A stretch of DNA of 64,000 nucleotides, taken from Massalongia carnosa. Taxonomy: Eukaryota. Shown piece by piece: positions 23,501-63,182 of this stretch; the stretch's first letter is position 1, and every line of letters begins with the position of its first letter. Below the pieces are notes generated by a model, which was not told the origin of the DNA, did no database searches, and saw only the letters and a program-made list of their open reading frames with translations. Position numbers and translations under genes: made by a program. The DNA lies in assembly GCA_965645245.1 (NCBI GenBank), contig OZ287084.1, positions 1,364,001 to 1,428,000 of the forward strand, read 5' to 3'.

Positions 23501-24773
23501 AGATATGCATACTATCGCTCATCTACCTATATTCATTCGTACATAGTAACTCTACCTACCACCTATCACTTAACCCTCATCTAACTATTCTAGATCAGCA
23601 ATCAGGCGTACAAGGGCTGGCTGATTCGTCTCCTGATCGCGCGATCACCACATCCATCCACTTCCTCTCTAACTCCGCCATCGACCGCACAACGCTCCAA
23701 GAGCAAACTAGACTCTAGTGACGTTTACTCTCGGATGGTAACTTAACCGAAGCGAACTGTTCGTTAACTTACGGCCAGTTTGAATCGCGCCTTTTTGGCT
23801 GTACTTCGTAGGACGAAAGAAAAAGTCGTGGCTTACTCCGTTCAGCGCTGATAGATCGAGGGGTCAGGACCTGATTGGGCAGTCTTCGTTTAAAAGCACC
23901 AGGGCGCTTTCCTTGTCTCAGCCCAAATCCTCCTTTTCTCACGCTATATCCCATCTCCAAAGGATGAGACTGAATGACCTTCAGGTTGTGAAGTACGGAG
24001 TAGATACCCTAAAGAATAGTATTTTAGATTCGCGCGTGACGAGACCATGCATGTGGAAGACGAACCGAAATAGCAGTACAGCGTAGGTATTTCTTGCATG
24101 TGATGACTGTCGCTTTCTGCTCATGCTTGCATCAAATACGCAAGCAGCGACGAAATGAAGCACACACCACTGGGCCAAAGAGCTGAGCTGAACATGTCAG
24201 TCGACACACGTGGTAGCATACACGCGATTACATTGGTCGGTCACTCGGGGAAATTCCAAGAGAAAGGGGGGTATGGTGATCCCTCTGTTCGGTGGAAATG
24301 GTTGCGTTGCGTCCTCGAAATCCCACTGCGTCAGCCCACAAAAGCGGTCGCGTGTTCCCCAGCAGGCCCAGCAGGGGGGATCAGGAGCTGATGATACGAT
24401 CTCCTCTCTGGATATCTCCTCTCTGGAGTATATCATCGAACACTCTTTCATAATTACCCTCTTTCACCCGCTCTCCTATTTTTGCGTCATCCTGCCCTCC
24501 AGAAAACGAGAGAACTGCTTCCAGTCGAAGGGAAGGCCGTGGCCATCAAAAGAGGCGTTTTTGTCCCACCTATCACAAGCCGTCCCGCCGTCGGGATCCT
24601 CTAGGATTGAAGTCCCCGATTTTCCCACCGCATATGCATTAGGTTGTACCTTGCCGATCACATTGGGGAAAATAATACAAGAAGCAAGGTCGGAATGAGA
24701 CATATCTTGGTGCAGTACTCGTTGTCATAATTCGTGGATAGCTTGGTTGAGATTGTAGAAGTACCCGCTCAAG

Positions 24774-39052: not shown

Positions 39053-40227
39053 ATGACAATGTGGTCAACAACAATTCCTGTATTCGCGCTTTGCTTTGTA
39101 AGGTTGAGCTATTGCAAAGATAGCCAAATCCCGCTAGCACTGGACAATCATGTCTACATCCCCTCTCTAGGATTCGGGACATGGAATCTGGACAAATCGA
39201 ATGTCTCCGAAGTGGTTTCTGTGGCCATTCAGACTGGTTATCGTCACCTAGACTGTGCTGCGGCTTACGGCAATGAGAAGGAGGTTGGTCGAGGCATTGC
39301 GGAAGGCATTCGGAAGGCTGGAATTGACCGCCTAGACCTATGGGTAACGTCAAAGCTGTGGAATAATCAGTAGGTCCCTTCTAAAGATTTATGTTTCTCA
39401 ATCATGAACTGCGGTGGCTTTTCCGGCCGCTCCCATTAACTCACTATACCACTCTAGTCATCGACCAGACCAAGTTGAAGCAGCTTTGGATCAGACGTTG
39501 TCTGACTTAGGCTTGGACTATATCGACCTTTACCTCATGCACTGGCCTGTGGCATCTACTCCTCATGGTAATGTGATCAATTACCTTGATGTGAGTCCCT
39601 TGCTTTTGTTGAGATAGCGTGACAAAATAGAGCTTAACCCTTCGAAAACAGACCTGGAACGCCATGGGGAAAATCTCTCGCCACAAAGCTCGTAACATTG
39701 GCGTCTGCAACTTTGCTCCGGACCAGCTAAAGCGTTTGGTTTTTGGATCGTATTTCAAGCCTGCGGTCCATCAAATGGAAGCCCACCCTTATCTTCAACA
39801 GGTCGATTACTTGGAGTGGCACAAGAAGCATGATATTACTTTCACGGCGTATTCCCCATTGGCTGGCACAAATCCTACATACCATTCTCCCGATTCTCAT
39901 GAGAACCTGCCCCCTCCCTTACTTAAAAACCCAACCGTTTCGCTGATTGCAAAAAAACGAGGATGTACACCTGCCCAGGTTGCAGTGGCGTGGGGAATTG
40001 GTAGAGGAACCATTGTGATACCAAAGAGCTCTCACGCTGCGCACATCAAGGAAAATTTCGACGCTTTGAATTGCGAACTGCACGAGGAAGATTTTCAAAC
40101 AATAGGAGAGCTTCGAGAGAAATATTTAAAGCGGTATAACAATCCTTCGAAGAGATGGGGCGTAGACCTTTTCAAAGGGTTGGAAGATGTAGACTATGCA
40201 TCTAAATGCGGATTATTGTGTGACTAA
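39053..40227 (+). CDS. Aldo-keto reductase (AKR1/Gcy1-like) with an N-terminal hydrophobic extension (introns 39370-39457, 39591-39651)
   Basis: IPSLGFGTW, GYRHLDCAAAYGNEKEVG, VTSKLWN, YIDLYLMHWP, IGVCNF, QMEAHPYLQQ, AYSPL, VIPKS; catalytic D/Y/K/H residues are present. Confidence 0.92.
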
Positions 40228-42415: not shown

Positions 42416-43599
42416 TCGGTTCGCTAACAACAAATTATAGTTTTAGGGTTTCCCAACCTGGCAATCGGCCAAGGCCTAAATCTTTGTGATATTCCGAGGT
42501 GTCGGGGAGGGAAGAAATGAAGACTTAGAGGTTAGAATATTACATGTACGGGTATCGCATATCTAGGCTGAGCCTTGAATCGTGGTTATTTTCCGGCTTT
42601 CCTGTCGTTTCAGTCCGAGGCGTCGTTTTCTTCTTCTACATTCCAATTCGAGCCTTTTCCAAAGACCCCGAACAGACACGAAAGAGACAAGGATGGAGCT
42701 GAAGATAAGATTAAGAAAGGGGTTGGGAGTTGAGATGGGAATAGGTATGGGAATGAGACTTATTTCTTTCCAATATTTGGCATTTCTCGAGTGTACCTAA
42801 CTGAAAGGATTCATCGGTCATGTCCTTTTCCTGCCTCGATCTCGACCCTGATCTTCTTCTCCGTCTCGCTCAATCCTCCGTCCTTTATAACGTAACCATC
42901 ATGATCCACTCCGAGGCCTCAGCCCGACCAGTCAACCGTTCTTGTAATCAACCGTTCTTGTAACATTGAGATATCACCATATAACGGTCTTTATCTATCT
43001 GTTTGTTCGGTAAGTTTCCAAGTCATTGTGAGCCCGCCTTGATTATATATAGCTAGATCACCCAAGACGCAAATCTCCTCGATTTTTGCACTACTTCTGA
43101 TGGAGATGAACGCGGTTGAATAGCTGGGTTATCTGTAATAAAATTTTCGAGATGTTGACTGCTTAAAACGATAAATCGGGGTCATCCACTATTAATTAAT
43201 AACCTACAGTTTCGAGATTTAAGTTATGGGCGTCAATCGCACGTAGATGTCTCGAGACTACTTTATGTGCTGCCTACTCTCTCTTTGTGCGCTTTCATTC
43301 AAAATCTTTCATGCTCGGTTTGTCCAGTGTAGGTGTTCCTTGCATAACATTAAAATCTCTATCAATTTCCGCATGCATATCTCTAAGACAATCATACCAA
43401 CAAAAGAGCTGTTAACATGATCATAAACGCGATGTGAACAAAATCGTGAGTAACCGAATTTATTCGACAACTTACACTGATTGAATAATCAACTAAAACA
43501 GAACCTTGCAATCAGAAATAGATATCTTCCGTCCATTCAAGATCTGCTTGGAACTTTAAAGGATTTCTTAACCAGACCGCTAAATTTTGCTTCAATTTC

Positions 43600-44582
43600 A
43601 TGGCTCAAAAGTCATCAAATTTACATGATTTATTTTCTGAGCTTGTGCAAGTCCACGGTGCTAAGTACGGGAAAATACGAGACCAAACCTATCTATACCC
43701 TTCACTTGGTAGATGTGTGGCTGCTTTATCTTCTGAAAGGATCCAAGGGCGCGATATTGTGACATACATGTATGAAGACGGCCAATGTGTTCGCATAGTC
43801 GAAAACCACGGTACCCTCTCTGGTGACGTTCCCCGACTTCGTCAAAATTTGCCGCCATTGGAAGGGCATTATGAAGTCGACGGCAACAATATCCGCGCTA
43901 TTTCGAGTTTGCCATTACCTCCCCCGCTCGATGACAACTCTGAAGACATCAGTGCCGAGTTTACCTTGCTGTGTTCAATTTGGGTGAATCCGGCGAACCA
44001 TTTCGTCAAGAAAGACAAATATAGGAGTAAAATACCTATTCTGCTCAAGTGCCAGGGAGGCGTATGTTTAGGAAAACCACTCTCCCCTTATATCGTTTAG
44101 CTCCTCGTTAACTCTTCAAATGGTGAACTGTTTTCGAGAAACTAATTCCACGATACTTCATCCTTTACCGATTCTCCTCTGTTGCCATTTATAAGCGTTG
44201 GGCTCTCCACATTGTTGCTGCTCTGCAATGTCATCACTTCCTAGGTCTGGTCTATCATGACCTCCGCATTGAAAACCCGCTCTTCTCGGAAGATAGCGTT
44301 TGGCAGTTTGTGACCTTTGAGTGCTGCTGGGGATTGCGTTATACCCCCGAGTCATCCCTGATCATGGGTTGGATTCTAGTTAGGCAGAGAAATCAGATAT
44401 TTACTACCTTAGCACATGCATTGAGGGTTTGATTTACGCTAACAATTCCCTTACAGACTAAGTCGAGTGGCCTGTCCCGCTGCCATTTGATGCTATTGAT
44501 GAAGCGTGTAAGCGTGCGTCACCTCGAGAACGGCCCCTCGTTGGACGACTTGATTACCATGATGGAGGCGATAGAGGAGTGA
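43600..44582 (+). pseudogene. Protein kinase-like pseudogene
   Basis: HFVKK.KY.S.I..LLKCQGG, SPYIV* (stop where a Q is expected), then fragments HDLRIEN (catalytic-loop-like), VCDL*, EKSDIY and ERPLV, interrupted by stops and frameshifts. Confidence 0.65.
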
Positions 44583-46215: not shown

Positions 46216-46321
46216 GTTGAACTCATGGTTCCCTCAACCGTTGAACTCATGGTTCCCTCAACCGTTGAACCCATGGTTCCCTCAACCGTTGAACTCATGG
46301 TTCCCTCAACCGTTGAACTCA
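46216..46321. repeat. 24-bp tandem repeat (GTTGAACTCATGGTTCCCTCAACC) x4.4
   Basis: Directly visible; one substitution in copy 3. Confidence 0.92.
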
Positions 46322-47327
46322 AGAAAGTCCCTGTTCCTTCGATCTAGAACCAAATCGAAATATACGACATCGCTTGACGAATGTAGACGTAATATGGCTA
46401 GCTGTCTTGGGAGCTGTAACTCTTTTCGCTGCATTCTAGAGAACTGCTGGGTTTTGAGCAGCTGTGGCGCTTTTCGGCCGAAGTAAATACATGAGGAAGC
46501 CAATCATAACCAGCGAGCGAAGAAATCGTATTTGATATATTTATTTTTCAGGCCCTGAGGCTGTATGGGTGATTGAAGAGTTTTCGATGATTGCCTGCCA
46601 TTTCATTTGTTCTGTGCTTCGGGCGGCCCAGTTCGGAAAATTGCTTAAATCCAGTCCAGTCTGGTTAGCGTAGGAGATGCACAAGCCATTGACAAACTCT
46701 AAGCAAGCAATCTACTCGTTTGAGCAATGATGGTAGTAAGAGCATGCATCTTGACGATTTCCGAGCGGTGCTACATCGTGACAGAGTCAGCTGGTTGCAC
46801 GGAGAGGTATCAATCAAAGCTCGGTATCGGAGCTGTACGGCCGCAAGCCACTGGTCATCAGGTTACATATCTCCGCCGCCTGGATTCGATGATATAAGAG
46901 GCGAAAGAACTCCGGAGTAAGATGCGAATGCACCGAACCAGGATATGGCATCAGAGATCTGGACCGGCCCGAAAAATGTTGCTCTTCCATAGCCGATTAA
47001 TTTTTTAATAGAAAAAGTCAAGTTGTTACGAGATGGCATAAAAGGACACTCAACGTTTGAATCATGCAGATTTGTTCCTGTAGCATCATGGTAGTCAGGC
47101 CTGGGGTTCCGGTAAGTAGGAGGAAGGAGACGAAAGGGTCCGTGGGTGGAGTAGGTGGGTGATTCTAATAATTGATGGAGGGAGATAGTAAAGCGTATTA
47201 AAGGAGTGATGACGGGGTTAGCGGGATAGCTAGAAAGGAGTACACAGCAAATTTCCCTTTTGATTATTTTACATGCGTCGCAGCCCTCCCAACGGTGCGA
47301 AAAGAATAACCATCGCTGTCTACAGGT

Positions 47328-48947
47328 TTAGACAACTTCCAACCCAGAACTGCCGTGCCCTGCAATCTCGTTGTTTAAGAGCTTCGCCTGGGCCGAGTAC
47401 TTGCAGCGCTCACGAATTGCAGCGCCGTACCTGCTGAAGATGAATGGGAACGGAAGACAAAGCAAAGACAAAAAAGCAGGGACGCTGGTTCCCCAATGAA
47501 TACCAAGCCTGGCATATAGCGCCGTGGTGAAGAGCGGGAACGCGGCGCCGAAGATGGAGCGTAAGATGGAACAGGATGCCAGCGCTGAGGCGGCATAGAC
47601 GGTGTAAGAGTCGATAAGGTAGTTCATCGAGCCGAGGAATATGAGAACCATACCAAAGCCGAAGGGGGCTGCGAGCACAATGCAAGCCATAAAGTGGATG
47701 GAGGGAAAGTTGGTCCAGGCGAAGGCGAAAATACCGACTGGAAGCACGACAGCGCCGATCATGGCCGGCGGGAGCCTGGACTCGGGAGGCGCGAAGCCGT
47801 GGTGTTCTTTGGATACTTTCTCGTATCGCCAGTTGTCGATGACTGCATACACAACAGCAAGCATCATTCCGACCAAGACACCGAGAAATGCAAGCCCACC
47901 GACCCCTTCAGACCAGCCATAGGTTTCTTGAAAGATAAATGGGAAGCCGGCAAACATTAGATATAACATTCCATAAACTAGGACATATATTAGTGATGGT
48001 TTCAAGACCTGTCGAGATCATAGCTATGTACCGATAGCCATGAAGATGGAAAGTAGAAGTACAATCGGCTCGAACGCCAAGAGAGCCCACGGTCTTGTCA
48101 AGGAAACTTTCAGCGTATGTCCCAAAGTCTTGGTGCCATGATCCGCCTCTAGCTTGCTGATATAAACCTTACCGGTAATCTTGCTCAGTTTCGCTGCACG
48201 CTTTCTCAATAGTACGGGCGCGTACGTCTCAGGAACTAGGAGGATACCCAGGATCCAGAGAGCTCCAGTTATGATAGCCATCAGCCCTTGCATCCATCTC
48301 CAACCTTTATTCTGAGTGAAGAAGCCTCCTACCAAGGGACCCAGGGTAGGGCCGAAGAAAGGCGCACAGGAAAATATTGATAAAGCTAACCCACGCTCAA
48401 CTGGAGGAAACATGTCGGCAATCACGCCACCAGCATTGGTCAACGGCGAGCAACCAAAAAATCCGGCTAGAAATCGTAGGAGAAGAAGCGTTATTATATT
48501 CCGGGAGCCAGCACAGCCAGTGTTGAAGGCCGTTAGTGCCATGAAGGTGACGAAGAAAATTATCTGCCGGCCAAACATCTCAGAAAGAGGGGCCCATAAC
48601 AACGCCCCAACGCCAAAGCCCAGGACGAAAAGCGAAATCCCTGCCGTCACAACCTCTGTGCGAGCGCTAAACTCCTGCTCAATCTCTTTTAATCCACCAG
48701 TATATGCCGACGAGACAAGTGTAGCACCCAGAGTTGCAAAGGTAACCAGAAGAGTTATGATCCACTTCTTCGACTTGTCGAAACTCATAGGATTACGAGG
48801 GTCATCACGGATCCATTCGACCGCGAAAGGGTCCTCTGTAGTTCCAGACCCACGATAATGACTCTTGAGGACATCCTTGGTGACAAGGGACTGAGAGGCC
48901 ACAAGCTGCCAGTGTTTGATAGGAATGCTATAAAATGATTTTACCAT
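47328..48947 (-). CDS. MFS drug:H+ antiporter (DHA1, Tpo1/Flr1-like); intron 48031-47978
   Basis: W..DDPRNPMSF, SLFVLGFGVGALLWAPLSEMFGR, RFLAGFFG, GGVIADMF, GPTLGP, GWRW, PETYAP, PESRL, YLIDSY..YAASA. Confidence 0.93.
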
Positions 48948-50135
48948 CTTGGACCTAAAACCACCAAGCTAAAAAAGCGATATACAACAGGCAAGATTAA
49001 AACCTCTCAGCAACTACAAGGACCACACAGCGACTTTCTTGCTGGACTTGGGCTGAACTCTACCAAGAAGAATGCCAAGACTTCCCGTTGGCGGTTGTGT
49101 GAAGAGGGATGAGATTAAGGAGTAGTTTGATCCAATACACAAGGAATAGCGGTTAGTGTGCTGGATTGGGCGTTTTTTTCCTGGAGTATGGCGTGCTGTT
49201 GACCAAGTGCAGGAACTATCGTTAGCTCGCTCTCCTTGACACAGACCGCTCTGGTGCTTTCCCGAAGGGTCCCTCAGAAACATGAGCCCATCCTCTAAAG
49301 ACGAAACGACCATGTTGGCCGGTGGGACGAAGCCGGAGATAGTATAACCTTTGGGTATAATCCGATAGAGTTTCATGCGGTTCCTAACAACATACAGACG
49401 AGTGAGAAGGACAATGACGTGAGACGGCAGCGGCCTTCGGGGTTCGGGCTAGGGACTATCCGCAAATATCAAGGAACCAATCTCGCATCAAAGTTGAAGT
49501 ATGTTGCCCGATCGAGGCTTATGGAGCACATATTATTTCTGTCATCCGATTGTTGAAGACCAGTGAAGATGAACGTGAAGAACAATGAAAGACAAGACGA
49601 AGGAGCGACGATTAAATTATTGGTGGGTTCGCAGCCAGGATGCGTTAGGATGACGATGAAGACGTTAAAGGCGGTCAATGACGCGACTTAGACATGGATC
49701 GATAAAACCATGTACGCGAGAAGGAGTTGCCGTTAAGCGTAAGCAAGAGAATGAAAATCCGCCGTTAATACTATTACATAAGTTGTGCGATCTAATGTGA
49801 GCATAGGATGATAACGATGGATCATGACAGCGTTATCTTGGATTCCTTCAGGTAGGATGACTGCTTGAACTCAAGGGATAGGCGCGTTAGACCGTTTCCG
49901 CTTACTTTGCGCTCTCAATAAGACTATTTGAGCAGTAAGCGAAAAAAAGACGCGAGTTCTGAAGTCAATAAACACTAGATTAAAGTTTGTACAACTTATT
50001 CTCGGCTTGATGACTATTCATGTGAACGTATTTTAAGACCAAAGCGATCTGCAATCCCTGTAATCAAGGACACTACCATCCGCCGACTAAGGCAAATTGC
50101 TTTATCAATGAGTTATCACAAACTGGTTGAGATAA

Positions 50136-51617
50136 CTACTCAAACCTCCACTCAATGATAGCCATGCAGCAGCCTATTGGCCGCTTGAGTCCTACGTATT
50201 TAAAACGCGGCTGTGCGGCTGTGATAATCCGATCGTAGTTAGCCACAGTTCGCTCGCGAGCTCCCATGAAAATCATCATTTGTATGTCTCGTCGTCTGAG
50301 TTTCGTAGGTATAAACGTCAGTATTTGAGCTGGTCCAAAGAGCCATGACGGGATATGAGATAGAGTAGCGGATTTTACTTACTTAAATAGCCTTTCCTCA
50401 AATTCGCTCATATTGCTGTCATCGGGGCTAATTGTTTCGTTGATAAGCAAGCGCGCCCCTGGTCGCAAAGCCGGATGAAGTGCGGCGATGATTTTTATGC
50501 AATCATCGTCTGACCAGTTGTGAAGAATGTAGCGAAGGAAGTATGCGTCAGCTACGGTAGGCTGAGGCTGGAAAAAATCGTGTTCTTGGAATTCGATTCG
50601 CGAATTTAGATCTGTGGGCAATTGATCTTTGGACACTTTAATCGTTTTTGGAAGATCTTGAACGATGAAGCTGATTGCTGGAAAAGCAGTAGCTACGATC
50701 TGGCTGACATGACCGCTGGAACCGCCAAGCTGCATGAGAGCCAGAGGTGAGCCTAACTCAAATACGTTCGCCATAGAGAAGAATAGCGGGGTTGTCTCAC
50801 ATCAACGACTAGTTTTCCTTCAAGCTGCTGCCAATCATAACTTGTTAGAGCGTTCTGAGCAGATGAACGCCTTTCCGCAAATTCAGAGGCCATATAATTG
50901 CTAAAAAGCTTCGAAGCTTCCTTGTTGCTGTTGTGATATTCATAAAATGTTTCGTTCGTTGAGTATGCAACGTTGAAAGCAGATTTGTGAGGGCTATCGC
51001 AGACTGAGAACTTCTGTAACGCATCGTACAGTCTGGGGCCTGTGAGTGCTGGCAGATTGACATCCCAATGGATTGTGTTTGCAAACGGACCATGTGCGAG
51101 AACGGCTGAAGCTGCAGTATGTCCCACGAAGCTTGAGTCGATAATCTGAAAAATACCAGCACTGGTGCAATATGATACAAGTCGATGAAGCATATCAAGA
51201 TCAAGCCCAGTCTTTTCCGCTAAATGCTCAAAAGAGATTTCTCCCGTAAGAGGAACGGCTTTCGCAACGTTATAGTTGACTATAACTCGCATCGCACCCG
51301 AGTTGACAGGCTGCATTGAAGAAATCAGAGTTCAAAGTACTCGTAGAAGATAGCCTGCAATTGATACTCACGGCGCCACTGGTGAGGTCTTTAATGACTT
51401 CGATGGGACCGCATAACAATCGATTCATGTTATTCAGCGCATCTATCATTTCAAATCTCAGTGTCTGAATAGTATCATAGTGCTGTCCAAACACTACAAA
51501 ATCGGGCGGTGCGTCGGCCTTCCAGGATGGCATAGGCACCCCGCTCTCGATCATGATGTGCTCAAGCTGTTCACTCCTTGACTTCAAATCATTAGCTAAT
51601 GCAAGTAGGGAAGTCAT
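50136..51617 (-). CDS. SAM-dependent O-methyltransferase of the fungal secondary-metabolite type (OmtA-like, Methyltransf_2); exons 51617-51372, 51310-50801, 50729-50383, 50295-50136
   Basis: Spliced VVDLGGSSGH SAM motif, IVQDL, HDFF.PQP, YFLRYILHNWSD (catalytic His), RRDIQMM...ARERT; N-terminal winged-helix dimerisation region. Confidence 0.92.
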
Positions 51618-52625
51618 TGTCTAAAACCAATGAAATGTAGGTAGAAAAATAGAATTGTGTTCTTAATGATGAAGTCGGCGAGGTGACTTGTAGAAGCGGA
51701 CGTACGAAGGAATAAAATTGAGCTTTTAGGTAAACCTTGAATGAATCTAACTCAATTTTTCGTAAAAGGAAAAACACAGCAGCTTGCTGGGGACTCGTAA
51801 GGTTGTTACCGTGACGATCGGCATTCACCGTGTAAGCGGGAGGGGATCGGACGCTAGCAGCAGGGAAATGAAGACTCGGAACAACGCAGGACGCCGACCC
51901 ATCGCGGCAAGGACCTAATGAGATATGCCCGAATCATGAAGTCTGGACCTCGGCACGGGGAAGATATAAAGTACAAGGTCTGTTTTAGTCATTTGATTCA
52001 TTTTTACATAATCGGTCGCTGAAATAAATGAAACATGTCTTGATCTCAAGATTCGCAGTTACTCATCGAGTCACGTGCTTGGAGGACATGACGACCGAGC
52101 GTCGATAGAAACGTATGATGAAGACAAAACTTTCAGCAGGGCGGCTGGAGGTACGAAAACGAGGCATTCGAATCCTTTAATGTCAAATCTAACCATAGAC
52201 CTTCGGTGAATAAGAGTAAAGTTGTCCCACATCTTATTGCGTATCTTGCTAGATAGATTACTGTCCAACCGGTAGCTACCTGGTAAGTCGACCTGCATGG
52301 ATTACTTGTTTCTGTCCAAGCGTGATCTTATATGCAGAATCGACCTAAACATTAAGAGACGAACCCGAAACATTTTTGAGGTTTGATACGTCTGCACCTA
52401 ACACACCGCTACTTTGAATGATGAATCAAGAGAGCAAGTGGCAATGCAGACTTTATATGATAGAATGCCGAATATGGAGGACGTAATAGCTTATGATACA
52501 TATTTGAATATGAGTTATGACCTCGGGCCCGGTCAAGCACTCTTAGGTCTTATCATTGACAATATTTTGTCGTCGAGAATCCGGGTGATCGCACATTGAT
52601 CATGATTGACATTAAATAGTCGAAG

Positions 52626-54267
52626 ATGCATAAAACAATTGTTGTGGGAGCTGGCCCGGTCGGTATCATTGCCGCCATATATGCGGCCGCACGTGGTGAC
52701 CAGGTAGAGGTATACGAGAAACGAAAAGGTTCGTTGCCGATGATGAAGATTCTGGAAAAAATACATCATGGTAAAAGGTTTTGGCTGATCAATATCCAGA
52801 CCCTCGTTCCAACCCGGAGACGGCGTTAGGTGCACTTGAATCAGTAAACTTAACCCTTTCCGAGAGAGGTATCAAAGCATTGGAGAAAACCGACCGTCCA
52901 GCATTGGTCAAGAACATAGTACAAGAGACATGTGCACTGCAAGGCCGTGTGCTCCATCTGCATGACGACAAGCATCGAACTTGGACGCACTCAGTTCGTT
53001 ATGATGCAGAAGACAAGGTAACTCTTTAAATTCTTAAAGCTTCTGTAACTTAGTGTTGGGTTAATTTCTAAGATTAGACTCTGTTGGCTATTGATCGCAT
53101 GCGACTTGTCACAATTCTACTTGATGAAGTAGACAAGATCAGTAACATTTGTGTGTACTTTGAACATTGTCTCGAGCGCGTGGATCTTTTGAACAACACC
53201 GTATCTGTTTGTCGATCGAAAACGTTGAAACCTCGGCCATCGGATGTATCAGGAAAAACACCAATGAAAAACAATATGGCATACCAGATCGACTTCGATT
53301 TTTTACTGGGTACGGACGGGATCAATTCTTCAACAAGATCCTTTATGATGAGATCTGTGGATCTAAACTTCCAGCAGGAGTACTCGGATACACTCTGGTG
53401 CGGTTTCCATGTCGAATCCCTGGAAAAGAATCAAGCGAATTGGGTTCTGGATCCTACACACATACATATATGGCCTGGTGGTACTAGTATGTTGACTGCG
53501 ATTCCGAGCATTGTGGGTTTTTTCACTGTAGATATCACGGCCCAATAGATTAACCCTAAACCTAATAGAACGGATCGTATACCTTCACCTTGTTCGGCTC
53601 AGTAGCAATCTTCGCTGACCTTTCGTCGTCTCCAAGTTCCAAGATCCCGGATTTTTTTGAAAAGACCTTTCCTGGCGTGATGGGAACACTGATCCCTCAA
53701 GAATCTCTGATATTCCAATATCAAAAGCACGTCAAAAGTCGGCTTAGGACCGTTAAATGCTCCCCATACCACCATAGAGCAAATTGTGCGCTGGCTGGCG
53801 ATGCAGCCCATGCCATGGTCCCGTTTTACGGCCAAGGCACCAACGCCGGGTTTGAGGATATCACAACACTATACCTACACCTCGATGCTGAGATGCAACG
53901 AGTCGGCGGGTATCGAGTCATCGATAAAGAGCAAAGGGTACAGGCCTATACTATCGCGCTCCAGGAATATTCGGACAAACGGGCCGCTGATGGAGCGGCG
54001 ATTTGCGACATGGCAGTTGAGCATTACAAGGAGCTTAACCCGAGCGCAGTGACTTTGCTCGGCCGCGCGAGGAGAGGAATGGATAACATGCTCATGAAGC
54101 TGCTGTCTCGCCGGGTATGGATCGCGGAGTACCCGCGCGTGGCATTCTCGACCGATCGGTACAGTGACATCGCGGCTAGAATCAGAAAACAGTATCAAAT
54201 TATAATGATTTTAGAGTGCATGATAATTGCGATATTATTGCTGGTATTGCGATATTTCAAAATTTAA
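52626..54267 (+). CDS. Kynurenine 3-monooxygenase-like FAD-dependent monooxygenase (introns 52729-52799, 53018-53077, 53513-53568)
   Basis: [96 protein letters not shown] and a hydrophobic C-terminus: KMO/Bna4 family signatures. Confidence 0.9.
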
Positions 54268-54791
54268 ATCATATATAAATCAGCTCAAATTAAAAAAAAT
54301 TTTCTGATATTTTTCCTTGTAATAAAAAAATCAATTGAACTTAAACATTTGATGATGATGTATTCATACTCCGATATGTCACCGGCCGTAGGCCGGCCCA
54401 TGCAGGCAAAGCTATCTAAGTTATGTTACACGGAAAAACTTTTTCAGGTGTAAAAACCATATCCCTTGATACCTGACACCGGGTCGACGTCGGACAGGAG
54501 ACACAAAGCGAAAATATTATGAGAACTGTAACGCCTTGTGAGATGAAAAGGAAAAGAGAAGTGAAATTACTGTTAATTGTACAATAGTGTAGCTGCCAGT
54601 GAGAATTGAGTCAGTAGACCTGTTTTCATTAGTCAAGCAGTTAATATCTTTAGAGTTTTTGATGTTTCAATTAGCTGTTGATAGTTGTTCGTGTCAGCGG
54701 CGCGAAACATCTATTCTCTATTGTCAATAAGTCTACAGATCATGATTACGTGTTCTGGAGTTTGTCTGTGTCAGTCACATGGACAGGCCGG

Positions 54792-54955
54792 TGTAGAAGT
54801 ATGAGGTTATTCGTTTTATTATATTCATGATTCTATGACTCTCTACTTCTAAGGTCTAAAATCATCCAAGTCCAGGATGCGTGCCGCTTACCGGAATAGG
54901 TCTACTGTTATACGTGACCATAATAATGTCTAGCGCCATAGGTTGGTATCCAACA
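54792..54955. mobile_element. Solo LTR (164 bp) with 5-bp TSD GCCGG
   Basis: TGTAGAAG...TCCAACA flanked by GCCGG at 54787-54791 and 54956-54960; removing it restores LINE TSPACPC. Confidence 0.85.
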
Positions 54956-55506
54956 GCCGGTGAGGTGACGGCGGAGACCCGTCGCTGATAGAGAAAGTCA
55001 GCGAGATCGATCTTACCGATGCGGATTTGTGTTGTCAGGGCGCTTTCTGCCTTTTTAGCAGCTTGTATATTTTCAGTCGTTTTTTGCTTAGTGAGACTGA
55101 TTGCGCTATGGAGAGTTCGGTGACGCGATTTTGATATGCGCTCCACGAGTCGTTCCAGACTTTCAGCTGTCGTGCTTTAATTGTCTGCATTTATTTTGAC
55201 GAGCCAACGCTGCTACGGAGACTTCGCGAAGATGCGCTGAAGGGGGATCGGATCATGATGAGTGTGCTTTGAGTGGTTGAACGATTTTTGCGTCGATCAG
55301 TAGGTTTTTGGCTTAGGTGTGCTTCAGCTTTCCCGGAGTGGATTTTTGAAGGCGTTTGCGATCTGCCTTGCCTCGGAATTTGTTAACTATTTTGCTGCAT
55401 GCGAAAGAAATGACCTTCGATTGACCTCCGGCTCGGAGTCGATCTATATATGTCTCTGCTTCAAGAACTGAAATGAAAGTGACTTTAAAGGCATCGATTA
55501 TGATGC

Positions 55507-55884
55507 TGTGAAAGGATGAACTGGGTGGTGTGCGTGGTCCACTACTGTAGGAGTGCAAGAGAACAAACGAACAAGAGAAGAACAGAACAATAGAATATAA
55601 ACAATAGCTAGACTGATCACTGTATGCCTCGCACCTCGTGCCTCGTGCCTCGTGCCTCGTGCCTCGTGCCTCGTGCCTCGTGCCTCGTGCCTGTGAACTG
55701 TATGTGTTAAAGCTATGTGTTGTAGCTATTGCTACGAGCATGCTTGCTCTATGTCTAAAAGGAAAAGAACTATCTTTAACTAAAAGAGAGACTGTCACCT
55801 GACTTCCCCGCTACCTTTACCGGAAAAGAACCAACTCCCGAACCGCTAGCAATTTGAATTTAGAGTATCACCGCTCCACCTACA
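55507..55884. mobile_element. Solo-LTR-like insert (378 bp) with TSD ATGC and an internal (CCTCGTG)n heptamer array
   Basis: TGTGAAAGG...CACCTACA flanked by ATGC at 55503-55506 and 55885-55888; removing it restores LINE QNNCLRIIIDAF; heptamer repeat at about 55627-55692. Confidence 0.7.
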
Positions 55885-56043
55885 ATGCGAAGGCAGTTGT
55901 TTTGCATAACGAAGAGCTTACTCGTTGACGTTTTTGACTTTTTTGGCCATGTGTAATACGGTTGATTCGTATGGCATGACCGGACGCACTACGGCGCTGT
56001 AAACTTGCCTTGCTTTGATGAAAGTGATATCCCAGGTCGATGT

Positions 56044-56299
56044 TGTCACGATTCTACTCGGCACGACCTCGGCACTCGGATAAATTCGGCACCAAACCGT
56101 AGATGGAACGCGCAGTAACTTTTTCGATTTTGTTCCTGCAGTCACGAGAAGATTCTATCACGACTATACCACATGGATACTAGCGCAGTAGAGGATATAT
56201 AGGGACAGGTTCGGGATGTCGATTGTCTTTTTCTTTTTCTTCTTTATCTTTATTGTATTCGTTTCTAGCATCCCTATGACTTGTCTCTAGATCATAACA
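56044..56299. mobile_element. Solo LTR (256 bp) with 5-bp TSD GATGT
   Basis: TGTCACGA...TCATAACA flanked by GATGT at 56039-56043 and 56300-56304; removing it restores LINE KISTSTWD. Confidence 0.87.
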
Positions 56300-57297
56300 G
56301 ATGTGGAGATTTTTGTCAATGTCATGAATTGTTTAATCATTTTCTTTTGAGTTTTGCAAACGTGTGCGATCCTTATTTTAATTTGATGTCAATTTGTAAG
56401 CCTAAGACTCTAATATTCGTTTTAGGTTCAATTTGGGTGCTTGCATTGTTGATAAATGCAGTTATATTGAATCTTTTGGAATTTCTGAACCAGTAAATGA
56501 GTTCGTACTTCGTCGGAGCGAATAAGTTATCGTGGTGTGAACATGAGACGTGGAGGTTCATTGAACAGGTCAATCTACGGCTGCCCTAGATGGACTTGAT
56601 GATCGTTGTGGTTAGACTGCGAGCTTACCGAGTTTGGTTTAGTGTCCCTTTTCAGGAGTTAAAGGAAAGCAGTTACTGTTTTCCTCCTTGTGTTTGTTTC
56701 GTCAGATTATCATGTAGTATAGTCGATAGCGAAACACTGTTCCACCACATGGATAGGATCATTGGCCTCCTACCGTGACATTACAAACACCCTCCCATAC
56801 TCCAGTGTGGTTCTTGTTCCCTATTAGCAATCATGTCCTCAGCTTCTCCAGCTCTCGACACTCCAGGATCTACCTCTCAGCCCCTTCGAGTCCCGATACT
56901 CGGAGGAGCCTCACAGCAATAGCAGCCTCTTAGGAAGGATGGGCCTAGTCGGCCTCGGCTTATCCGAGAGAGTGGTATCGTTACACGCATCGTCTCATCA
57001 GTTTTGCTTCCGGAGCCGTGGAAGCTATTGAGGAGAAGAATCGACAATACAATTTCCTCGAAACGGAACTCAACAACCTTCGCGCCCAGCTGCAGGCCTC
57101 CAATGACGAGCTCATAGCCGCTCGTGGGATGATATCTGTCTTTCGTCAGCAGAGTCAAGAATATCAGAAATACTAGCAACAGAGAACCCCGTTCTGAAAA
57201 GCTTCCCGACATTCAGAAATTCTCGGGAAACAAGGATGAGCTTCGATCATGAACGACTCAACTGCATCTCAAACTCTTTGTCAATGCCGATCGGTTC

Positions 57298-58053
57298 ATG
57301 GGTCCCAAGTCCGGCCTCATCTACGCTATTAGTCGACTCGAGGGACTCGCCCTTTCACAAGTACAACCATACGTCAGATCGGAACAAGAAATTCTTCTGG
57401 ATGATGTGGCCGCCTTGTTAAAAATGTTGGAGAGAGCTTTTGGGGATCCCGACAAGAAGGCCACTGCACAACGAGAGCTTCGGTCCCTTCGACAGAAGAA
57501 TCGGGAGTTTCACGTGTACTTGTCGGACTTTCAGCGACTGATCCCGGACACTAACTTCGATTCTGAGGCTCAGCGCTCGGCTCTGTTGAATGGTGTCAGC
57601 GACGAACTAAAGCAGCTAATGGTAACCCAGGAGTTACCCAGCGATTTGGACGGGTTAATTACCCTGTTGCAGAGACTCGACACCCGACAACGCAACGTCA
57701 ATGCTTCGCTTCGTAAGCCTTTCTCGTCTCGTTCCTCTTCGCCTGCTACTGTTGGAGCCTTGCCCCGTAATCCGCAGTCCGGAGGAGTGACCCTACCCCG
57801 CGCCGCGTCCCCCGTCCCCTTGTCTTCATCCTCCGCACCCGACCCCATGGATCTCTCGACTACTAGTCGTGGTAAGTTGCCCTCAGCGGAGGTCACTCGC
57901 CAGATGACGGAAGGTCTGTGTCGGTATTGTGGGGAGTCGGGACATTTTGCGTTAAATTGTCCCAGGTTAACAAAGGGCCCGAGTAGGCCCAAGAATTCAC
58001 GTCTTAACGAGACCTCTTTTGCTTCTCCGGAAAATGCGGAGTCTTCGGGATAA
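57298..58053 (+). pseudogene. Gypsy gag (intact C-terminal part; the 5' part from about 56833 is interrupted)
   Basis: Retrotrans_gag-like LERAFGDPD...LRSLRQ; CCHC knuckle CRYCGESGHFALNC. Confidence 0.85.
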
Positions 58054-58167
58054 GTCGCGTAGATTGACCGGTTCAATGAACCTCCACGTCTCATGTTCAC
58101 ACCACGACAGTAGCTCCCCCCTTCGAGGCCTGAGACCACGCAGGCTATAGTGCCTAGTCGGTGTGAA

Positions 58168-60373
58168 TCAGCGAGGCTTGTCAGAGTAGCGTTTATGGAA
58201 TTCCTGTACTCGTTCGAGAGCGTTGGTGACGTACTCCGCGTACTCCCAGGTAGGGTCGTTCCAGCCTATCCACTGGACCAGATACTTCAGACGATTGCGT
58301 ATCTTCTTCGAGTCTAAAATCTCTTCGACTTCGTATTCTTCAGTTTCATCAACTAGCACGGGTGGTGGAGGGGGAGCGATATGACCAGGGTGAGGATCTT
58401 GTGGCACAGGAGTCAAGAGCGAAACATGGAACACTCGATGGATCTTCATGCCTGGTGGCAGGGCCAGCTGGTATGCGTATTTGCTGACGACCTTGGAGAT
58501 GACGAATGGGCCCAGATTCTTCCAATCGAACTTTCGGGCAGGTCTCTGAGTGCGTATGTTCTTAGCATTTAGCCATATCCTATCTCCTACTTGCTAAACC
58601 GGGGCAGGGACTCTGTGTCTATTAGCATCGAACTCGTACCTTGCCTAAGCAAACTTCATCTCTTCCTGCAGTACGTCATTGATTTGCTGCATCTTGTTGG
58701 CAAAACCTTCTGCATTCAAACTGGCGGGCGACCGGGAGAATTCTATTGATTCAAATCCCATTCGAGGATGAAATCCCGTCTCCGCGAAGAAGGGGCTACA
58801 CCCAGTGGTTTCCGAGGTCATGTTGTTTCCCGTGAATTCTGCCAGCGGTAACCAGTCTACCCAGTCGTCCTGCAAGTAGTCGGTATACATACGGATGTAC
58901 TGCTCCATTGAAGAATTTACTCTTTCAGTCTGCCCGTCGGTTTCGGGGTGAAATGCAGTGGACAAGAGACTCTTTATTCCCAGACGTTGACATAAGATTT
59001 TCCAAAATTCTGCGACGAAAAGCACTCCACGATCGGATACAATGGTCTGAGGCAATCCATGTAGCCTCCAAATCTCCTTTAGAAACAGCCTCGCGAGGCC
59101 CTCAACGTCTAGAGTAGTATGACAAGGCAGGAAGTGACGTCGCTTTGACAGACGATGCACAACAACTAGTACAGCGTCGAATCCTTGACTAACAGGGAGA
59201 CCAGTAACAAAGTCCATGGAGATGTCCTGCCAGCGTTGCTCAGGTACGGGTAATGGTCGAAGCACTCCCAGCTTTCCTTGACGAGAAGACTTGCTTCGAG
59301 AGCACACCTGACAATGTTTCACATACTTCGCTATGAACTGATAGAACTGAGGCCAATAGTAATGTCGCTGAACTAGATCGAAGGTTTTTGCTCTCCCTGG
59401 ATGTCCGGCTACGGGACTGTCGTGCATTTCTCTGCAAAGTCTCATTCTCAGTGCATGCGAGTCTGGAACATACATCTTTTCTCGATAGTGTAGTCGTCCC
59501 TGAATTTCTTTGCATTCTGCCAAAGAGATTTCCTTAGAATGACTGATCTTATTTCGCAGGAGTTCGAGAATCTTGCTCGGAAAAGGATCATTCTCTAGAC
59601 CCTCTTTCCAGAGTTCTTCCAGAGTCTTTTCGACTTCTTCTCGCTCGGTTTGACGATCGTCCGCTTGACTAGGAATGTTTAAATCATTGCTCAGAAGTTC
59701 TAAATTTCGAGGTTTCAAGACCACTTGATGCTGAATTTTCAATCGTGGATCATCCTCTCCTTCAGATAGGTCTTGAGACCTTCTGGTCAATGCATCAGGT
59801 TTTCCTCCGCTTTTGCCTGGACGATACACTATCTTGAAGTCGAAACGAGAAAGATATTGGGCCTGGCGACGACTCAACTGCTTGGTTGTCATGAAGTACT
59901 CTAAGTTCTTATGATCAGAAATTACTTGTATGGGAAAAGCAGCTCCTTCAAGCTCGGCTCTCCATTCTTCAAAGCACGAACAATGGCCATGAGTTCCTTG
60001 TCGTAGATTTCGTAGTTAATCTCCGCTGGTGAGTGTTTTTTGGAGAAGAAGGCCACCGGCCTAAGCGTTCCCTCGTCGTCATATTGCGAAAGTACTCCTC
60101 CTACTACCCAGTCCGAAGCGTCGACTTCCACTATTATTTTCTTTTCAGGATCGAAATGCATTAATACTGTATCGCTAAGAAAGGCGTCCTTCAAGGCTTG
60201 AAAGGCCTTCTCGCATTTTTCATCCCAGGCAAAGACTGTATTCTTTTTGGTTAACTTGATCAGGGGCGAGGCTATTTCGGAAAACCCTCGAACAAAACGG
60301 CGGTAGAAGTTCGCAAACCCCACAAAAGCTTGTATATCTCGAACTTTCTTTGGTGAAAGCCATTCCTTAATTG
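58168..60373 (-). pseudogene. Gypsy pol remnant: RT thumb/RNase H, integrase and chromodomain
   Basis: GFANFYRRF, EVDASD, NYEIYDKELMAIV, HDSPVAGHPG..C..C, ISMDFVTGLP, IVSDRG, FHPETDGQTER, HRVFHVSLL, EYEVEEILD..YLVQW.GW; frameshift near 59.95 kb and stops near 58.6 kb. Confidence 0.9.
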
Positions 60374-60690
60374 CTGCGAGCTTACCGAGTTTGGTTTAGT
60401 GTCCCTTTTCAGGAGTTAAAGGAAAGCAGTTACTGTTTTCCTCCTTGTGTTTATTTCGTCAGATTATAATGTAGTATAGTCGATAGCGAAACACTGTTCC
60501 ACCACATGGATAGGATCATTGGACTCCTACCGTGACATAAGGATTTGTGTCGAAAAGCTCACTTTTCGCATTGTCTGTGTATTGACTTTAGAGTCTTGCA
60601 ATTCTCTTCGAAGCTTTTTCCGTATGTCAAAATATTTAAACTGTTTACAAATCCTACGACACTTGTGTTTGTGCCTGCCTGATCGCTCAC

Positions 60691-60858
60691 TGTAACGGTT
60701 CGACCAAGCGTGGTGCGGACGGCAGGACCTACAGCGAACATAGCAGGAGACCCAGTTATAGTAGAATAGATTGTTCTGCGGACTAAGTATTGTGCCTTTT
60801 GGTCGGGAGGACAGGTGGCGCAATGGTAGAAATCTATTCACTATCTCGCTTCGTCACA
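60691..60858. mobile_element. Solo LTR (168 bp) with 5-bp TSD CTCAC
   Basis: TGTAACGG...TCGTCACA flanked by CTCAC at 60686-60690 and 60859-60863. Confidence 0.87.
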
Positions 60859-60866
60859 CTCACATA

Positions 60867-62298
60867 ACGTAATTCACCGCAATTCGGAACACCCGCTTAT
60901 TCGGAACTAACAAATTTGATACCAACCTTCGTAATTTTTTAGCACCGCCGCATCCACAAAATTTCTAGCACGTATACTCGGGAATTGATCAACAGGTTCT
61001 AGTGAATATATATAGCTAGGCATAAGCTTGTAGAGCTACATTTTACGAGTGTTACAGATGACACGACCGCGCGAGCTAACCCGAACCTCTAAAACTTCCT
61101 ACTTCTCCCCCTTTCCTACCATTTCCACATCACCTTGTACCAACCTAGTGATATATTTCTTTCTTGCTATACCTTTTCCTTTATTTTGAGCAGTTTTTTT
61201 AAACCCTAGGTCACCCTCAACTGTCTCCTTAAAAATATAAGGTGTAATCTGAATAAGATCGTGAAAGCGGTTTGAAAGAAAGAATCGTCTCGTTTCTTAT
61301 TTTTAAGTAAAGATCAAGATGTTACAAGATCAGGCACGTATATTAGGTCGGGTTCAAATCGCATTAGGTCTTTAGATACCTGAAAAAATAGTCGATCGTT
61401 CTGTTTTTTCTTTCCTTACCTGTGATCTAACCTCTTTCTCCTTTTTCTTATTTTCAGCTGGTTGTCTTCTTTTCTCCACATCTTCTAAACTCAATACGCA
61501 ATCCCCTTGAAAATCATATTGAGTGCCCGTACGTTGAGCTCGTTGTGTTTTTTCGTGTATTGGCTGCTAAAAGCTCCGTATTAGTACGATTCAAGACAAT
61601 ACGATCAGTCATAGCAAGCCCAGCTGCTTTAACGGTTTTTTGTAGAAGAGTAAGCTTAGAGGAATCAAGATTCTGATGGCGAAATAGTATATAAACTCCT
61701 CAACCTTTGAGACTTGTTCTATGTTTCCTGATATTGGTGATATTTGGCCTGAAAGATAACGCGTTTGAATAAGAGTACTAGCGCTAGGTAGAGTGTCATC
61801 GTCCGTATAAGGCTTAGCTGATATTTTGTCAAATGGCGGAGTCTAGTAGCTCTAGTTAACCTAGCTCTGAAGAGATCCATCCTCCTCGGGCGTTAACCTC
61901 TGCATTGAAGTAACGTACGATACCTGGTCCTGGCGACCGTTTATCCTGTAATACAATGTTGTTTTCGGTAGCGCATGAAGTTAAGCAGCTTGCGTAATAG
62001 ACAACGACCCTTCTGCCTTCTCGTAAACCTTAATTGCCTATTTTAAACGTTCTCTAACCTCGTCTTTCAAGGTAGTACGCAATCCCGATTTTGTAACTCG
62101 AAACTGCCGAGAAGAAGCCATTTCAGCGGTGTAATTTATCGATAATCAGCTATTATGATAATTATAATACCCTTTACCTTATTAAATCAGTTTTAGGGTT
62201 TTCTTCAATAAGTTGTAGAAGAGATAACGGTTGAAAGTAAGTTTCGTGGTTTTGTTAGTTCCGAATAAGCGGGTGTTCCGAATACAGGTGAATTACGT
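60867..62298 (-). mobile_element. Fot1/pogo (Tc1-mariner superfamily) DNA transposon, internally deleted and non-autonomous
   Basis: 48-bp TIRs ACGTAATTCACC...TTCGGAACTAACAAA (60867-60914 and 62251-62298, 3 mismatches), TA on both sides. The minus-strand transposase starts at 62121 with an HTH_psq-like SITQAA*LHALPKTTLYYRINGR...QRLTPEED; there are stop codons and no DDE core is visible. Confidence 0.9.
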
Positions 62299-62697
62299 TA
62301 TTTTCAATTGGTCTGCGTTATAGAATAATAAAGAATTAATGAAAAAGAAAAATCTTGTGATATTTTAATTTTCATCGCGAATCGTTAGATTGCTTTTCGA
62401 TTTATAACTAAATTGTGCAACGATTATTTAAAAAGTTTTTTAATTAATTAGTAATTTATCTCGAGATTTTTCTTTACGTAAATTGTGCGTTAGTCTTTGA
62501 TATAAAACTGTATCCAACGCATCGACGACGTTTATGCTGAAAAGTATGACTACTTTATCTTTTTCTTGTCATTAAATCGCGTGAACCTGTTCGATTAATA
62601 ACTTTAGAGCTGATTCTGAAAATTTGTTATTTCTCGCTCTTATCTGTGTGTCGGGTAGAAGTCGATGTGATTTCGCTACATAGATTATTTTTGATCT

Positions 62698-62874
62698 AGT
62701 TTAAAGAAGTATCTCATCGCAGGTGATCGCATTGACTATATTGTCTAGTTACACAGTAAGGGGTTTATTGAAATTATCTCTCCGTGTTCAATGAACCCGG
62801 CTTAGCACCGATTGAGTGATACCCCCCCGTGACGCTAAATGTCGGGGGTATCAAGGAGCAGCCGCCAACTAACA
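62698..62874. mobile_element. Probable solo LTR (177 bp) with 5-bp TSD GATCT
   Basis: GATCT at 62693-62697 and 62875-62879; right end ...CTAACA, left end AGTTT (not canonical TG); LINE remnants lie on both sides. Confidence 0.62.
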
Positions 62875-63182
62875 GATCTTATAATAGATTTTATTACTTT
62901 GTTGAATAATGCAATTAATCGATAAGTCTTCGGCGTAATATAATTTCCTTTGTCTATACGCACGTCTGAAACAAAGATATTAATAATTCAATAAGTTTTT
63001 CCGCGCATGTCTTGAATACTCTATTAAATATGTCGTCCGGACTCGATGCTTTATCGAGTTTGAGTCTATGTAGGATCTTCGATACTTCTGATCTGATGAT
63101 GACAATGCGACAATGCTGAATAAAAGAATTCTTTTTTGGCTCTTAAGTCGATCGATAATAATGCTCCAAAGAAAATGCTTCT

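Follow-up and report, generated by a model that had tools for sequence, protein, structure and literature searches.

The 64,000-nucleotide stretch of Massalongia carnosa DNA analysed here (contig OZ287084.1, positions 1,364,001 to 1,428,000 of the forward strand; hereafter the window, with positions counted from its first letter) carries, between 47328 and 54267, three spliced genes that encode an MFS transporter, an O-methyltransferase (OMT) and a flavin monooxygenase resembling kynurenine 3-monooxygenase (KMO, or Bna4). Judged by its sequence, the KMO-like gene is very probably a diverged paralogue whose product still binds a kynurenine-like acid and which lies in an atypical neighbourhood. 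An earlier note on this DNA had gone further and read the three genes as a cassette for a kynurenine-derived metabolite. That a diverged but functional KMO, the OMT and a DHA1-type pump serve one pathway is plausible, although we hold this reading tentatively and at somewhat less than even confidence: the divergence of the KMO, its altered pocket residues and its unusual neighbourhood speak for it, and the recurrence of the trio only in near-identical DNA speaks against it. The genes and the region between the two enzymes are as follows.

47328..47977, minus strand: MFS transporter exon 2, stop codon included; CCTAG acceptor; MFS_1 profile positions 198-347, 29.2 bits
48032..48947, minus strand: MFS transporter exon 1; ATG at 48947; Pfam MFS_1 99.3 bits, Sugar_tr 42.3 bits
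50136..51617, minus strand: family-2 S-adenosylmethionine (SAM)-dependent O-methyltransferase; 4 exons, 420 aa, Methyltransf_2
51618..52625, no strand: divergent intergenic region from the OMT start codon to the KMO start codon, 1008 bp
52626..54267, plus strand: KMO-like flavin monooxygenase; 4 exons, 484 aa; solved relatives are KMOs, placed in the Pezizomycotina KMO clade

In its short GT..AG introns and its Ty3/gypsy-type elements the window has the character of eukaryotic, fungal DNA, and together with the public runs described below this makes a lichen-associated ascomycete its source. As claimed earlier, the three genes are intact and spliced within 7 kb: their coordinates and order proved correct, all three translations are stop-free and all seven introns are GT..AG. 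The MFS gene has a single 54-nt intron and a product of 521 aa. The OMT exons lie at 51617-51372, 51310-50801, 50729-50383 and 50295-50136 on the minus strand (introns of 61, 71 and 87 nt), and the KMO-like exons at 52626-52728, 52800-53017, 53078-53512 and 53569-54267 on the plus strand (introns of 71, 60 and 56 nt). The head-to-head arrangement of the two enzyme genes across about 1 kb, also described in the earlier note, agrees with the distance between their start codons, and the MFS gene does follow the OMT gene, on the same strand and after 1188 bp. Pfam matches were judged against cut-offs of 33.4 bits for MFS_1, 22.3 for Methyltransf_2, 22 for FAD_binding_3, 21.9 for NAD_binding_8 and 25.6 for PF08100; of the nine pieces of exon that were scanned, two matched no family and a third had nothing but an unrelated match below threshold.

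First, the KMO-like protein shares its motifs, membrane anchor, introns and clade with the housekeeping KMO/Bna4 enzymes, of which structures are solved for yeast (4J2W-4J36), rat (6LKD), human (5X68) and Pseudomonas fluorescens (5FN0), among others. The fingerprints of the FAD fold (GxGxxG, DG and GD(AAH)...GQGxN) are all found, with GAGPVG, GTDGINS and [21 protein letters not shown] read in the model, and Pfam returns NAD_binding_8 (24.2 bits) together with FAD_binding_3 on exon 4 (31.4 bits). The ten best solved matches of exon 4 are all KMOs, among them the rat (E 2.4e-22), yeast (8e-18), human (1.7e-17) and Pseudomonas (8e-14) enzymes. Phylogenetically, the protein falls inside the Pezizomycotina KMO clade, with a starred support of 100 in a 92-row tree and of 100/100 in a 37-row tree. 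Residues 461-479 form a C-terminal hydrophobic segment (Kyte-Doolittle mean 2.63) of the kind that anchors eukaryotic KMOs in the membrane. In addition, all three intron positions (after residues 34, 107 and 252) match those of other fungal KMO genes. Across 80 KMO loci of fungi taken from metagenomes (together 887,177 bases, 45 loci longer than 10 kb), tblastn high-scoring segment pairs (HSPs) end at residues 33-35 in 33 cases and start at 34-35 in 35, start at 107-111 in 45, and end at 251-252 in 13 and start at 253 in 12. These shared positions therefore indicate descent from an intron-containing fungal KMO gene, and neither a retrocopy nor a bacterial transfer.

According to reviews, R83 and Y97 of yeast KMO bind the carboxylate of an inhibitor (PMC8747024), and R84, Y98, N369 and Y404 of Pseudomonas KMO bind that of L-kynurenine (PMC6376250). 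The carboxylate-binding positions of the window protein, mapped through yeast alignments for the yeast residues and by motif only for those of Pseudomonas, are R84, Y102, N344 and Y405; all four are kept, and their columns are near-invariant (R in 88, Y in 88, N in 91 and Y in 76 of the other 91 sequences). The yeast residues that flank the aromatic ring are given in the same review as L221, M230, I232, L234, F246, P321 and F322 (PMC8747024). Their counterparts in the window are I236, M245, T247, I249, F261, P337 and F338, of which four are identical and two conservative, and at the position of yeast I232, which is T247 here, the other 91 sequences have I in 80 cases, L in 5, M in 2 and V in 2. 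A supposed replacement of the substrate arginine by the glutamate of LESVNLTLS was considered and proved wrong: yeast has lysine at that place (NLKSINLAIS), and the substrate arginine lies in GRMIH, which reads GRVLH in the window. Judged by the four carboxylate binders, the KMO-like protein still appears suited to a substrate of the kynurenine type, in line with the earlier suggestion that it acts on kynurenine or a related aminoaryl compound; the threonine in the ring pocket is an unusual residue.

Second, this member of the family is strongly diverged, and here the earlier note was borne out. It had pointed to SVNLTLS and GQGTNAG, both present, where canonical Pezizomycotina have SINLALS and GQGMNAG, and it had called for the KMO tree reported above, in which the terminal branch of the window protein lies far above the median: 2.61 against 0.49 changes per column in the 92-row tree and 4.01 against 0.39 in the 37-row tree, or 5-10 times the median. 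Over its full length the protein is 35-38% identical to the canonical KMOs of Xylaria, Rutstroemia, Elsinoe and Bacidia gigantensis, whereas those are 54-64% identical to one another; with 35% identity to a Mucoromycota KMO as well, canonical Pezizomycotina sequences are no nearer to it. In similarity and branch length it does not match housekeeping Bna4 orthologues of the same subphylum and behaves instead like a divergent paralogue. The lichen-forming Bacidia gigantensis and Coniocarpon cinnabarinum themselves have KMOs of the canonical type, on branches of 0.6-1.1. What sets the window gene apart from housekeeping Bna4 is its lower identity, its long branch, its changes at conserved sites and its position beside an OMT and an MFS gene. 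A word-based protein search with the KMO-like sequence gave 270 matches, of which the best reach 37-42% identity. When about 15 billion proteins (many lichen metagenome assemblies included) were searched exhaustively with HMMER through their 1.84 billion representatives, 1599 matches came back; the only close one was the window's own open reading frame (ORF), at 100%, and the match with the next best E-value was 39% identical. The 90% cluster of that ORF has one member.

The divergence is unevenly distributed over the protein. The window KMO, which is at most 41% identical overall to any row of the alignment, keeps 31 of 33 columns conserved at the 95% level or above, 51 of 59 at 90% or above and 80 of 96 at 80% or above, along with 95 of 105 class-conserved columns. 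At the 90% level the median of the other rows is 97% kept; the window KMO is therefore under constraint, though under less of it than KMOs usually are. Ten columns are changed at class level, namely I79C, I210S, E216G, I247T, D253N, L/I328A, M343T, N404H, Y/F417G and P432S, and there is a further change, L236I, at a conserved column. As far as alignment columns can tell, this pattern of conservation is not that of neutral decay. It suggests that purifying selection has continued to act on catalysis, while in parts of the pocket selection has been relaxed or redirected. Repeat-induced point mutation (RIP) as a cause of the divergence is ruled out by indices that are normal on all three genes (TpA/ApT 0.65-0.76, (CA+TG)/(AC+GT) 1.22-1.47). 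RIP-like values were seen only at 60001-63000 (TpA/ApT 0.99-1.25, (CA+TG)/(AC+GT) 0.81-0.91, GC 34-44%), from which the three genes and most of the window differ. The GC content of third codon positions (GC3) is 0.51 in the KMO gene and 0.46 in the OMT gene, compared with 0.57 in the MFS gene and 0.59 and 0.62 in the BAHD and Rad10 genes of the window; the lower values of the two enzyme genes are a weak hint at most.

Third, the trees bear on the place of the window protein inside the Pezizomycotina clade. The 37-row tree contains a separate, older paralogue clade (support 100/98, starred) formed by proteins of Aspergillus avenaceus (P0248), Elasticomyces (P0263), Saxophila (P0274) and Pyricularia (P0032/P0040); P0042 is also listed with proteins of this second KMO clade. 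The best trees leave the window protein outside that clade, to whose members it is 32-33% identical, and group it with the canonical sequences (support 92 and 88/84, not starred). By an approximately unbiased (AU) test on the 37-row set, a tree that unites it with the paralogue clade is not rejected (p 0.134). In the textbook picture KMO is a single-copy gene. Second KMO-type genes show that extra copies exist in filamentous ascomycetes, and one report describes two in Botrytis cinerea, BcKMO and BcKMOL (PMC12237254). In Cordyceps javanica, we noted two members of one 90% cluster (P0288/P0401). KMO duplication in filamentous ascomycetes may be commoner than the single-copy picture has it. For the window gene, too, we infer the status of a second copy. 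Most likely, it would be a lineage-specific, strongly diverged and still functional copy that arose by duplication of an intron-containing BNA4.

The OMT matches Methyltransf_2 (PF00891) with 87.9 bits, above the gathering score, and its Dimerisation domain (PF08100) scores 23.1 bits, just below the cut-off. Among solved proteins, the SAM domain matches 8PHA (E 1e-16) and the emodin OMT GedA (7WH9; 2e-16), both fungal family-2 OMTs of secondary metabolism, as well as DnrK (about 1e-16), and the N-terminal part matches the OMT-fold proteins ApiI (4e-7) and HpiI (6e-6). Its glycine-rich LGGSSG and its ...YILHNWSDD... align with LGGGNG and ...HNWGDE... of 8PHA and with ...LHDWSDD... of GedA; the SAM motif is kept, as is the histidine of LHNW, which we take to be the catalytic base. 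In a protein atlas, the look-alikes of the substrate-binding exon are unnamed clusters of ascomycete OMT-like proteins, 11-39% of whose members carry PF08100. A word-based search with this exon gave 719 candidates among proteins of 299-2000 aa, none of them at E <=0.001, which for a search of this kind is weak evidence. On such comparisons nothing in the relatives of the OMT points either to or away from 3-hydroxykynurenine as acceptor, and its substrate is not inferable from them.

The third gene encodes a protein with about 12 hydrophobic segments, as expected of a 12-span MFS transporter. The window's own ORF (P0121) is a 100% match, and the next matches are DHA1-type proteins from many Pezizomycotina, with 55-66% identity over 305 residues; among these fungal DHA1 drug:H+ antiporters, an Umbilicaria vellea protein is 66% identical to the window MFS. 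Source names of the relatives include "fluconazole resistance protein 1" (FLR1-type), "mfs2" and "multidrug resistance protein". The earlier description of this gene as a DHA1 type therefore holds, given these relatives and the MFS_1 score of exon 1; since the group is very widespread, the gene does not specifically mark a cluster.

The neighbourhood of the KMO-like gene is unusual. In a tblastn comparison (E 1e-5 or better), each of the 80 fungal KMO loci gave a KMO match and none an OMT or DHA1 homologue beside it, which means that KMO genes do not in general stand next to an OMT or MFS gene. The same 80 loci bear on the synteny search that the earlier note proposed for KMO, OMT and DHA1 genes in other fungi: no such grouping was found among them, and the trio recurs only in near-identical DNA, namely in organism A, organism B and one lichen metagenome. 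None of the nine public runs listed with this stretch is an RNA run. The lichen-metagenome run contains 84% of the sampled window words, and its conspecific contigs differ from the window by 21 letters and 1 gap letter over 46292-51740 and by a further 11 letters, plus 16 letters of gap, over 51910-54355. The best-supported differences among all compared contigs lie in the repeats and at 43.2-43.6 kb. In the region between the OMT and KMO genes, the contigs of the lichen metagenome (X4) stop at 51740 and resume at 51910, and contig depth over this interval is slightly raised in X1 (526 compared with 482); a small repeated element may lie here in the shared promoter.

Beyond the trio, two further features mark the flanks.

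43522..44432, plus strand: possible decayed kinase-like gene; sub-threshold Pkinase match at 44127-44432 (E 0.067, 13 bits)
54378..60395, no strand: high-copy repeat and remains of a Ty3/gypsy-type retroelement; right boundary, from contig depth and Pfam domains

On the right, 54377 is the last position covered by single-copy contigs of organism A (X1 and X3), and from about 54284-54377 onward contig depth in these two runs is about 100 to 560 times higher. The transposon nest reported there earlier is real: besides this jump, ORFs at 57253-60395 carry Retrotrans_gag, zf-CCHC, Integrase_H2C2, rve, RT_RNaseH_2, SH3_Tf2-1 and Chromo domains. Inside the high-copy repeat, an ORF at 55313-55810 on the minus strand encodes a tandem ARGTRHE motif, and contig joints and indels are abundant around it, which points to many diverged copies. 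The window ends inside repeats; a backbone gene, or other genes, may therefore lie farther on. On the left, the decayed genes that the earlier note had placed there are weakly borne out, with the kinase-like match as the single case; permissive Pfam scans of 42 ORFs, 35 of them inside 40.3-47.3 kb, recognised nothing else in this flank, and no remnant of IDO, kynureninase, nonribosomal peptide synthetase (NRPS) or polyketide synthase (PKS). Just left of the MFS gene, a tandem repeat at 46217-46300 encodes LNSWFPQP about four times; in all compared runs the contigs are interrupted at 46245/46292, where the depth of the bin is raised as well, and this is therefore a repeated element.

Tailoring-type genes also occur farther to the left. 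An uninterrupted BAHD/TRI-like acyltransferase ORF of 542 aa (34263-35891, plus strand; Transferase 103.6 bits) and an aldo-keto reductase (AKR) gene of at least two exons (39053-40227, plus strand) lie 7-13 kb left of the MFS gene. An AtaL-family gene of two exons (9361-10315, minus strand; PF08982, about 64 bits for each half) and a gamma-glutamyl cyclotransferase (GGACT)/AIG2-like ORF (11726-12208, minus strand; PF06094, 47.6 bits) lie 35-40 kb left of the trio, with housekeeping genes between. The AtaL and GGACT families are known from epidithiodioxopiperazine-type clusters. The longest open frame of the window (24759-26963, plus strand; 734 aa) matches no Pfam family at E <=0.001.

If the three genes do act together, the membrane-anchored, NADPH- and FAD-dependent monooxygenase would add a hydroxyl group in the position ortho to the amine of L-kynurenine or of a substituted aryl-keto acid that resembles it; the OMT, of a secondary-metabolism type and transcribed divergently from the KMO gene, would cap the new phenol, and the adjoining generic DHA1 pump would carry the product out. 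That the two enzymes share one substrate and that the pump belongs to the same pathway is something we infer. The more specific proposal of a backbone-free KMO and OMT pathway that turns kynurenine, or a substituted form of it, into an exported, O-methylated metabolite of the 3-hydroxykynurenine or methoxy-quinoline type is, in our estimate, unlikely as it stands.

By analogy, the closest working counterparts of such a pathway are bacterial. In the quinolobactin pathway of Pseudomonas fluorescens, xanthurenic acid is converted to 8-hydroxy-4-methoxyquinaldic acid; similar to the route proposed here, a KMO and an O-methylation yield a methoxylated kynurenine-derived product that is exported, but the genes form a bacterial operon with an aminotransferase, a dioxygenase and a formamidase, which the window does not have. 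The sibiromycin cluster likewise includes a KMO, SibC. Class-I methyltransferases that act on 3-hydroxykynurenine in bacteria are SibL of sibiromycin biosynthesis and the related AcmI and AcmL of actinomycin biosynthesis, and SibL, which has the same fold as the window OMT, C-methylates this compound (PMC4426599). These enzymes methylate at C4 with a tyrosine as base, whereas the window OMT keeps the histidine typical of OMTs, and they belong to large NRPS clusters with kynureninase and dioxygenase genes, partners that the window lacks. In the open-access literature searched, we found no fungal or lichen cluster that combines a KMO with a methyltransferase and no 3-methoxykynurenine or 3-methoxyanthranilate products, which is no proof that none has been published.

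Several observations weigh against placing the three genes in one pathway. As the earlier note had stated, no backbone enzyme is present: Pfam scans that covered every stop-to-stop ORF of 130 aa or more in the window (67 in number), along with 71 shorter ones, found no PKS, NRPS, terpene synthase or prenyltransferase, and also no IDO/TDO, kynureninase or aminotransferase. The nearest solved relatives of the OMT (ApiI/HpiI, 8PHA, GedA and DnrK) are polyketide or pyridone enzymes, and the MFS protein is, by its sequence relatives, an ordinary member of a widespread and well-conserved DHA1 group, a household-type pump. The upstream regions of the transporter and enzyme genes (48948-50135 and 51618-52625) have no common word of 10 bases or more, and their only four CGG..CCG sites are unrelated. 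The recurrence of the trio is confined to the near-identical DNA described above, and in the lichen-metagenome sample the KMO allele may be broken. Among the HMMER matches listed, the window's own ORF aside, none exceeds 44% identity, and a KMO copy without orthologues could be a duplicate that is young or drifting just as well as one with a new function. Finally, this gene could be the only KMO of the organism.

Many of these points would be explained if the three genes were accidental neighbours in an eroded, transposon-rich region, the KMO duplicate serving kynurenine and NAD metabolism and the OMT and MFS genes another pathway, for example a polyketide one. We regard this as only slightly less likely than the cassette reading. 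It fits the lack of a backbone or of another kynurenine-pathway gene in the window, the polyketide and pyridone affinities of the OMT, the ubiquity of the transporter type and the upstream regions without shared words; it also fits the setting, with about 7 kb of unrecognisable sequence on the left and the retroelement nest on the right, and with other tailoring-type genes (BAHD, AKR, AtaL-like and GGACT) scattered through the window. However, none of the 80 other fungal KMO loci is paired in this way, so that this would be no usual accident, and the pocket residues of the KMO copy are changed, not plainly conserved. A head-to-head layout at 1 kb is, moreover, common among co-regulated cluster genes.

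Distinctly unlikely, in our judgement, is a change of substrate, in which the KMO-like enzyme would hydroxylate another carboxylate-bearing aromatic compound, such as a lichen polyketide acid, as a tailoring enzyme of a cluster with the backbone gene lost or lying beyond the retroelements. The ten altered class-conserved columns would suit it, as they mostly replace bulky hydrophobic residues by small or polar ones (I79C, I210S, E216G, I247T, M343T and Y/F417G) and include the position of the yeast pocket residue I232, and so would the resemblance of the OMT to polyketide O-methyltransferases such as GedA and the room for more genes where the window stops inside repeats. Against it stand the four carboxylate binders and the four of seven yeast pocket residues that are kept, the window scans, which found no PKS fragment, and the open-access literature searched, in which we found no KMO-family enzyme with a non-kynurenine substrate.

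It is quite improbable that the gene is the sole housekeeping KMO/Bna4 of the organism, fast-evolved in its lineage, with neighbours of no relevance. As this explanation needs, the protein has every hallmark of catalysis and substrate binding and also the membrane anchor, and the AU test leaves the place inside the Pezizomycotina clade unsettled (p 0.134). The canonical Bna4 proteins of four classes, that of Bacidia gigantensis included, are nevertheless far more alike mutually than any is to the window protein, and acceleration of a whole lineage would predict relatives of intermediate similarity, of which the listed matches contain none. That the genes are recently inactivated relics, silent or encoding a dead enzyme despite open frames, is highly improbable: unrecognisable sequence on one side, transposons on the other, the lower GC3 of the KMO and OMT genes relative to MFS, BAHD and Rad10 and the loss of the near-invariant residues in E216G, P432S and D253N would be in keeping with it, but the frames are open, the splice sites of all seven introns are intact, 31 of 33 invariant columns are kept and none of the three genes has a RIP signature.

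If the gene should be the only KMO of the organism, or should have no link to its neighbours, the locus would be an ordinary one. If, on the other hand, the KMO and the OMT cooperate, they would make up a fungal path that starts in primary tryptophan catabolism and reaches a specialised metabolite with neither PKS nor NRPS, a route to which backbone-centred genome mining is blind, and they would be the first equivalent in fungi of the bacterial modules for methylation of 3-hydroxykynurenine. The route could yield a nitrogen compound that absorbs UV light or is redox-active and has no described equivalent among lichens; this nitrogen-containing class would then be new to lichen chemistry. Moreover, in an enzyme family that serves as a drug target, the KMO-like protein is a natural variant of an extreme kind, in which the carboxylate anchors are kept and the surroundings of the aromatic pocket are changed, and which is therefore a useful test case for the substrate specificity of KMO.

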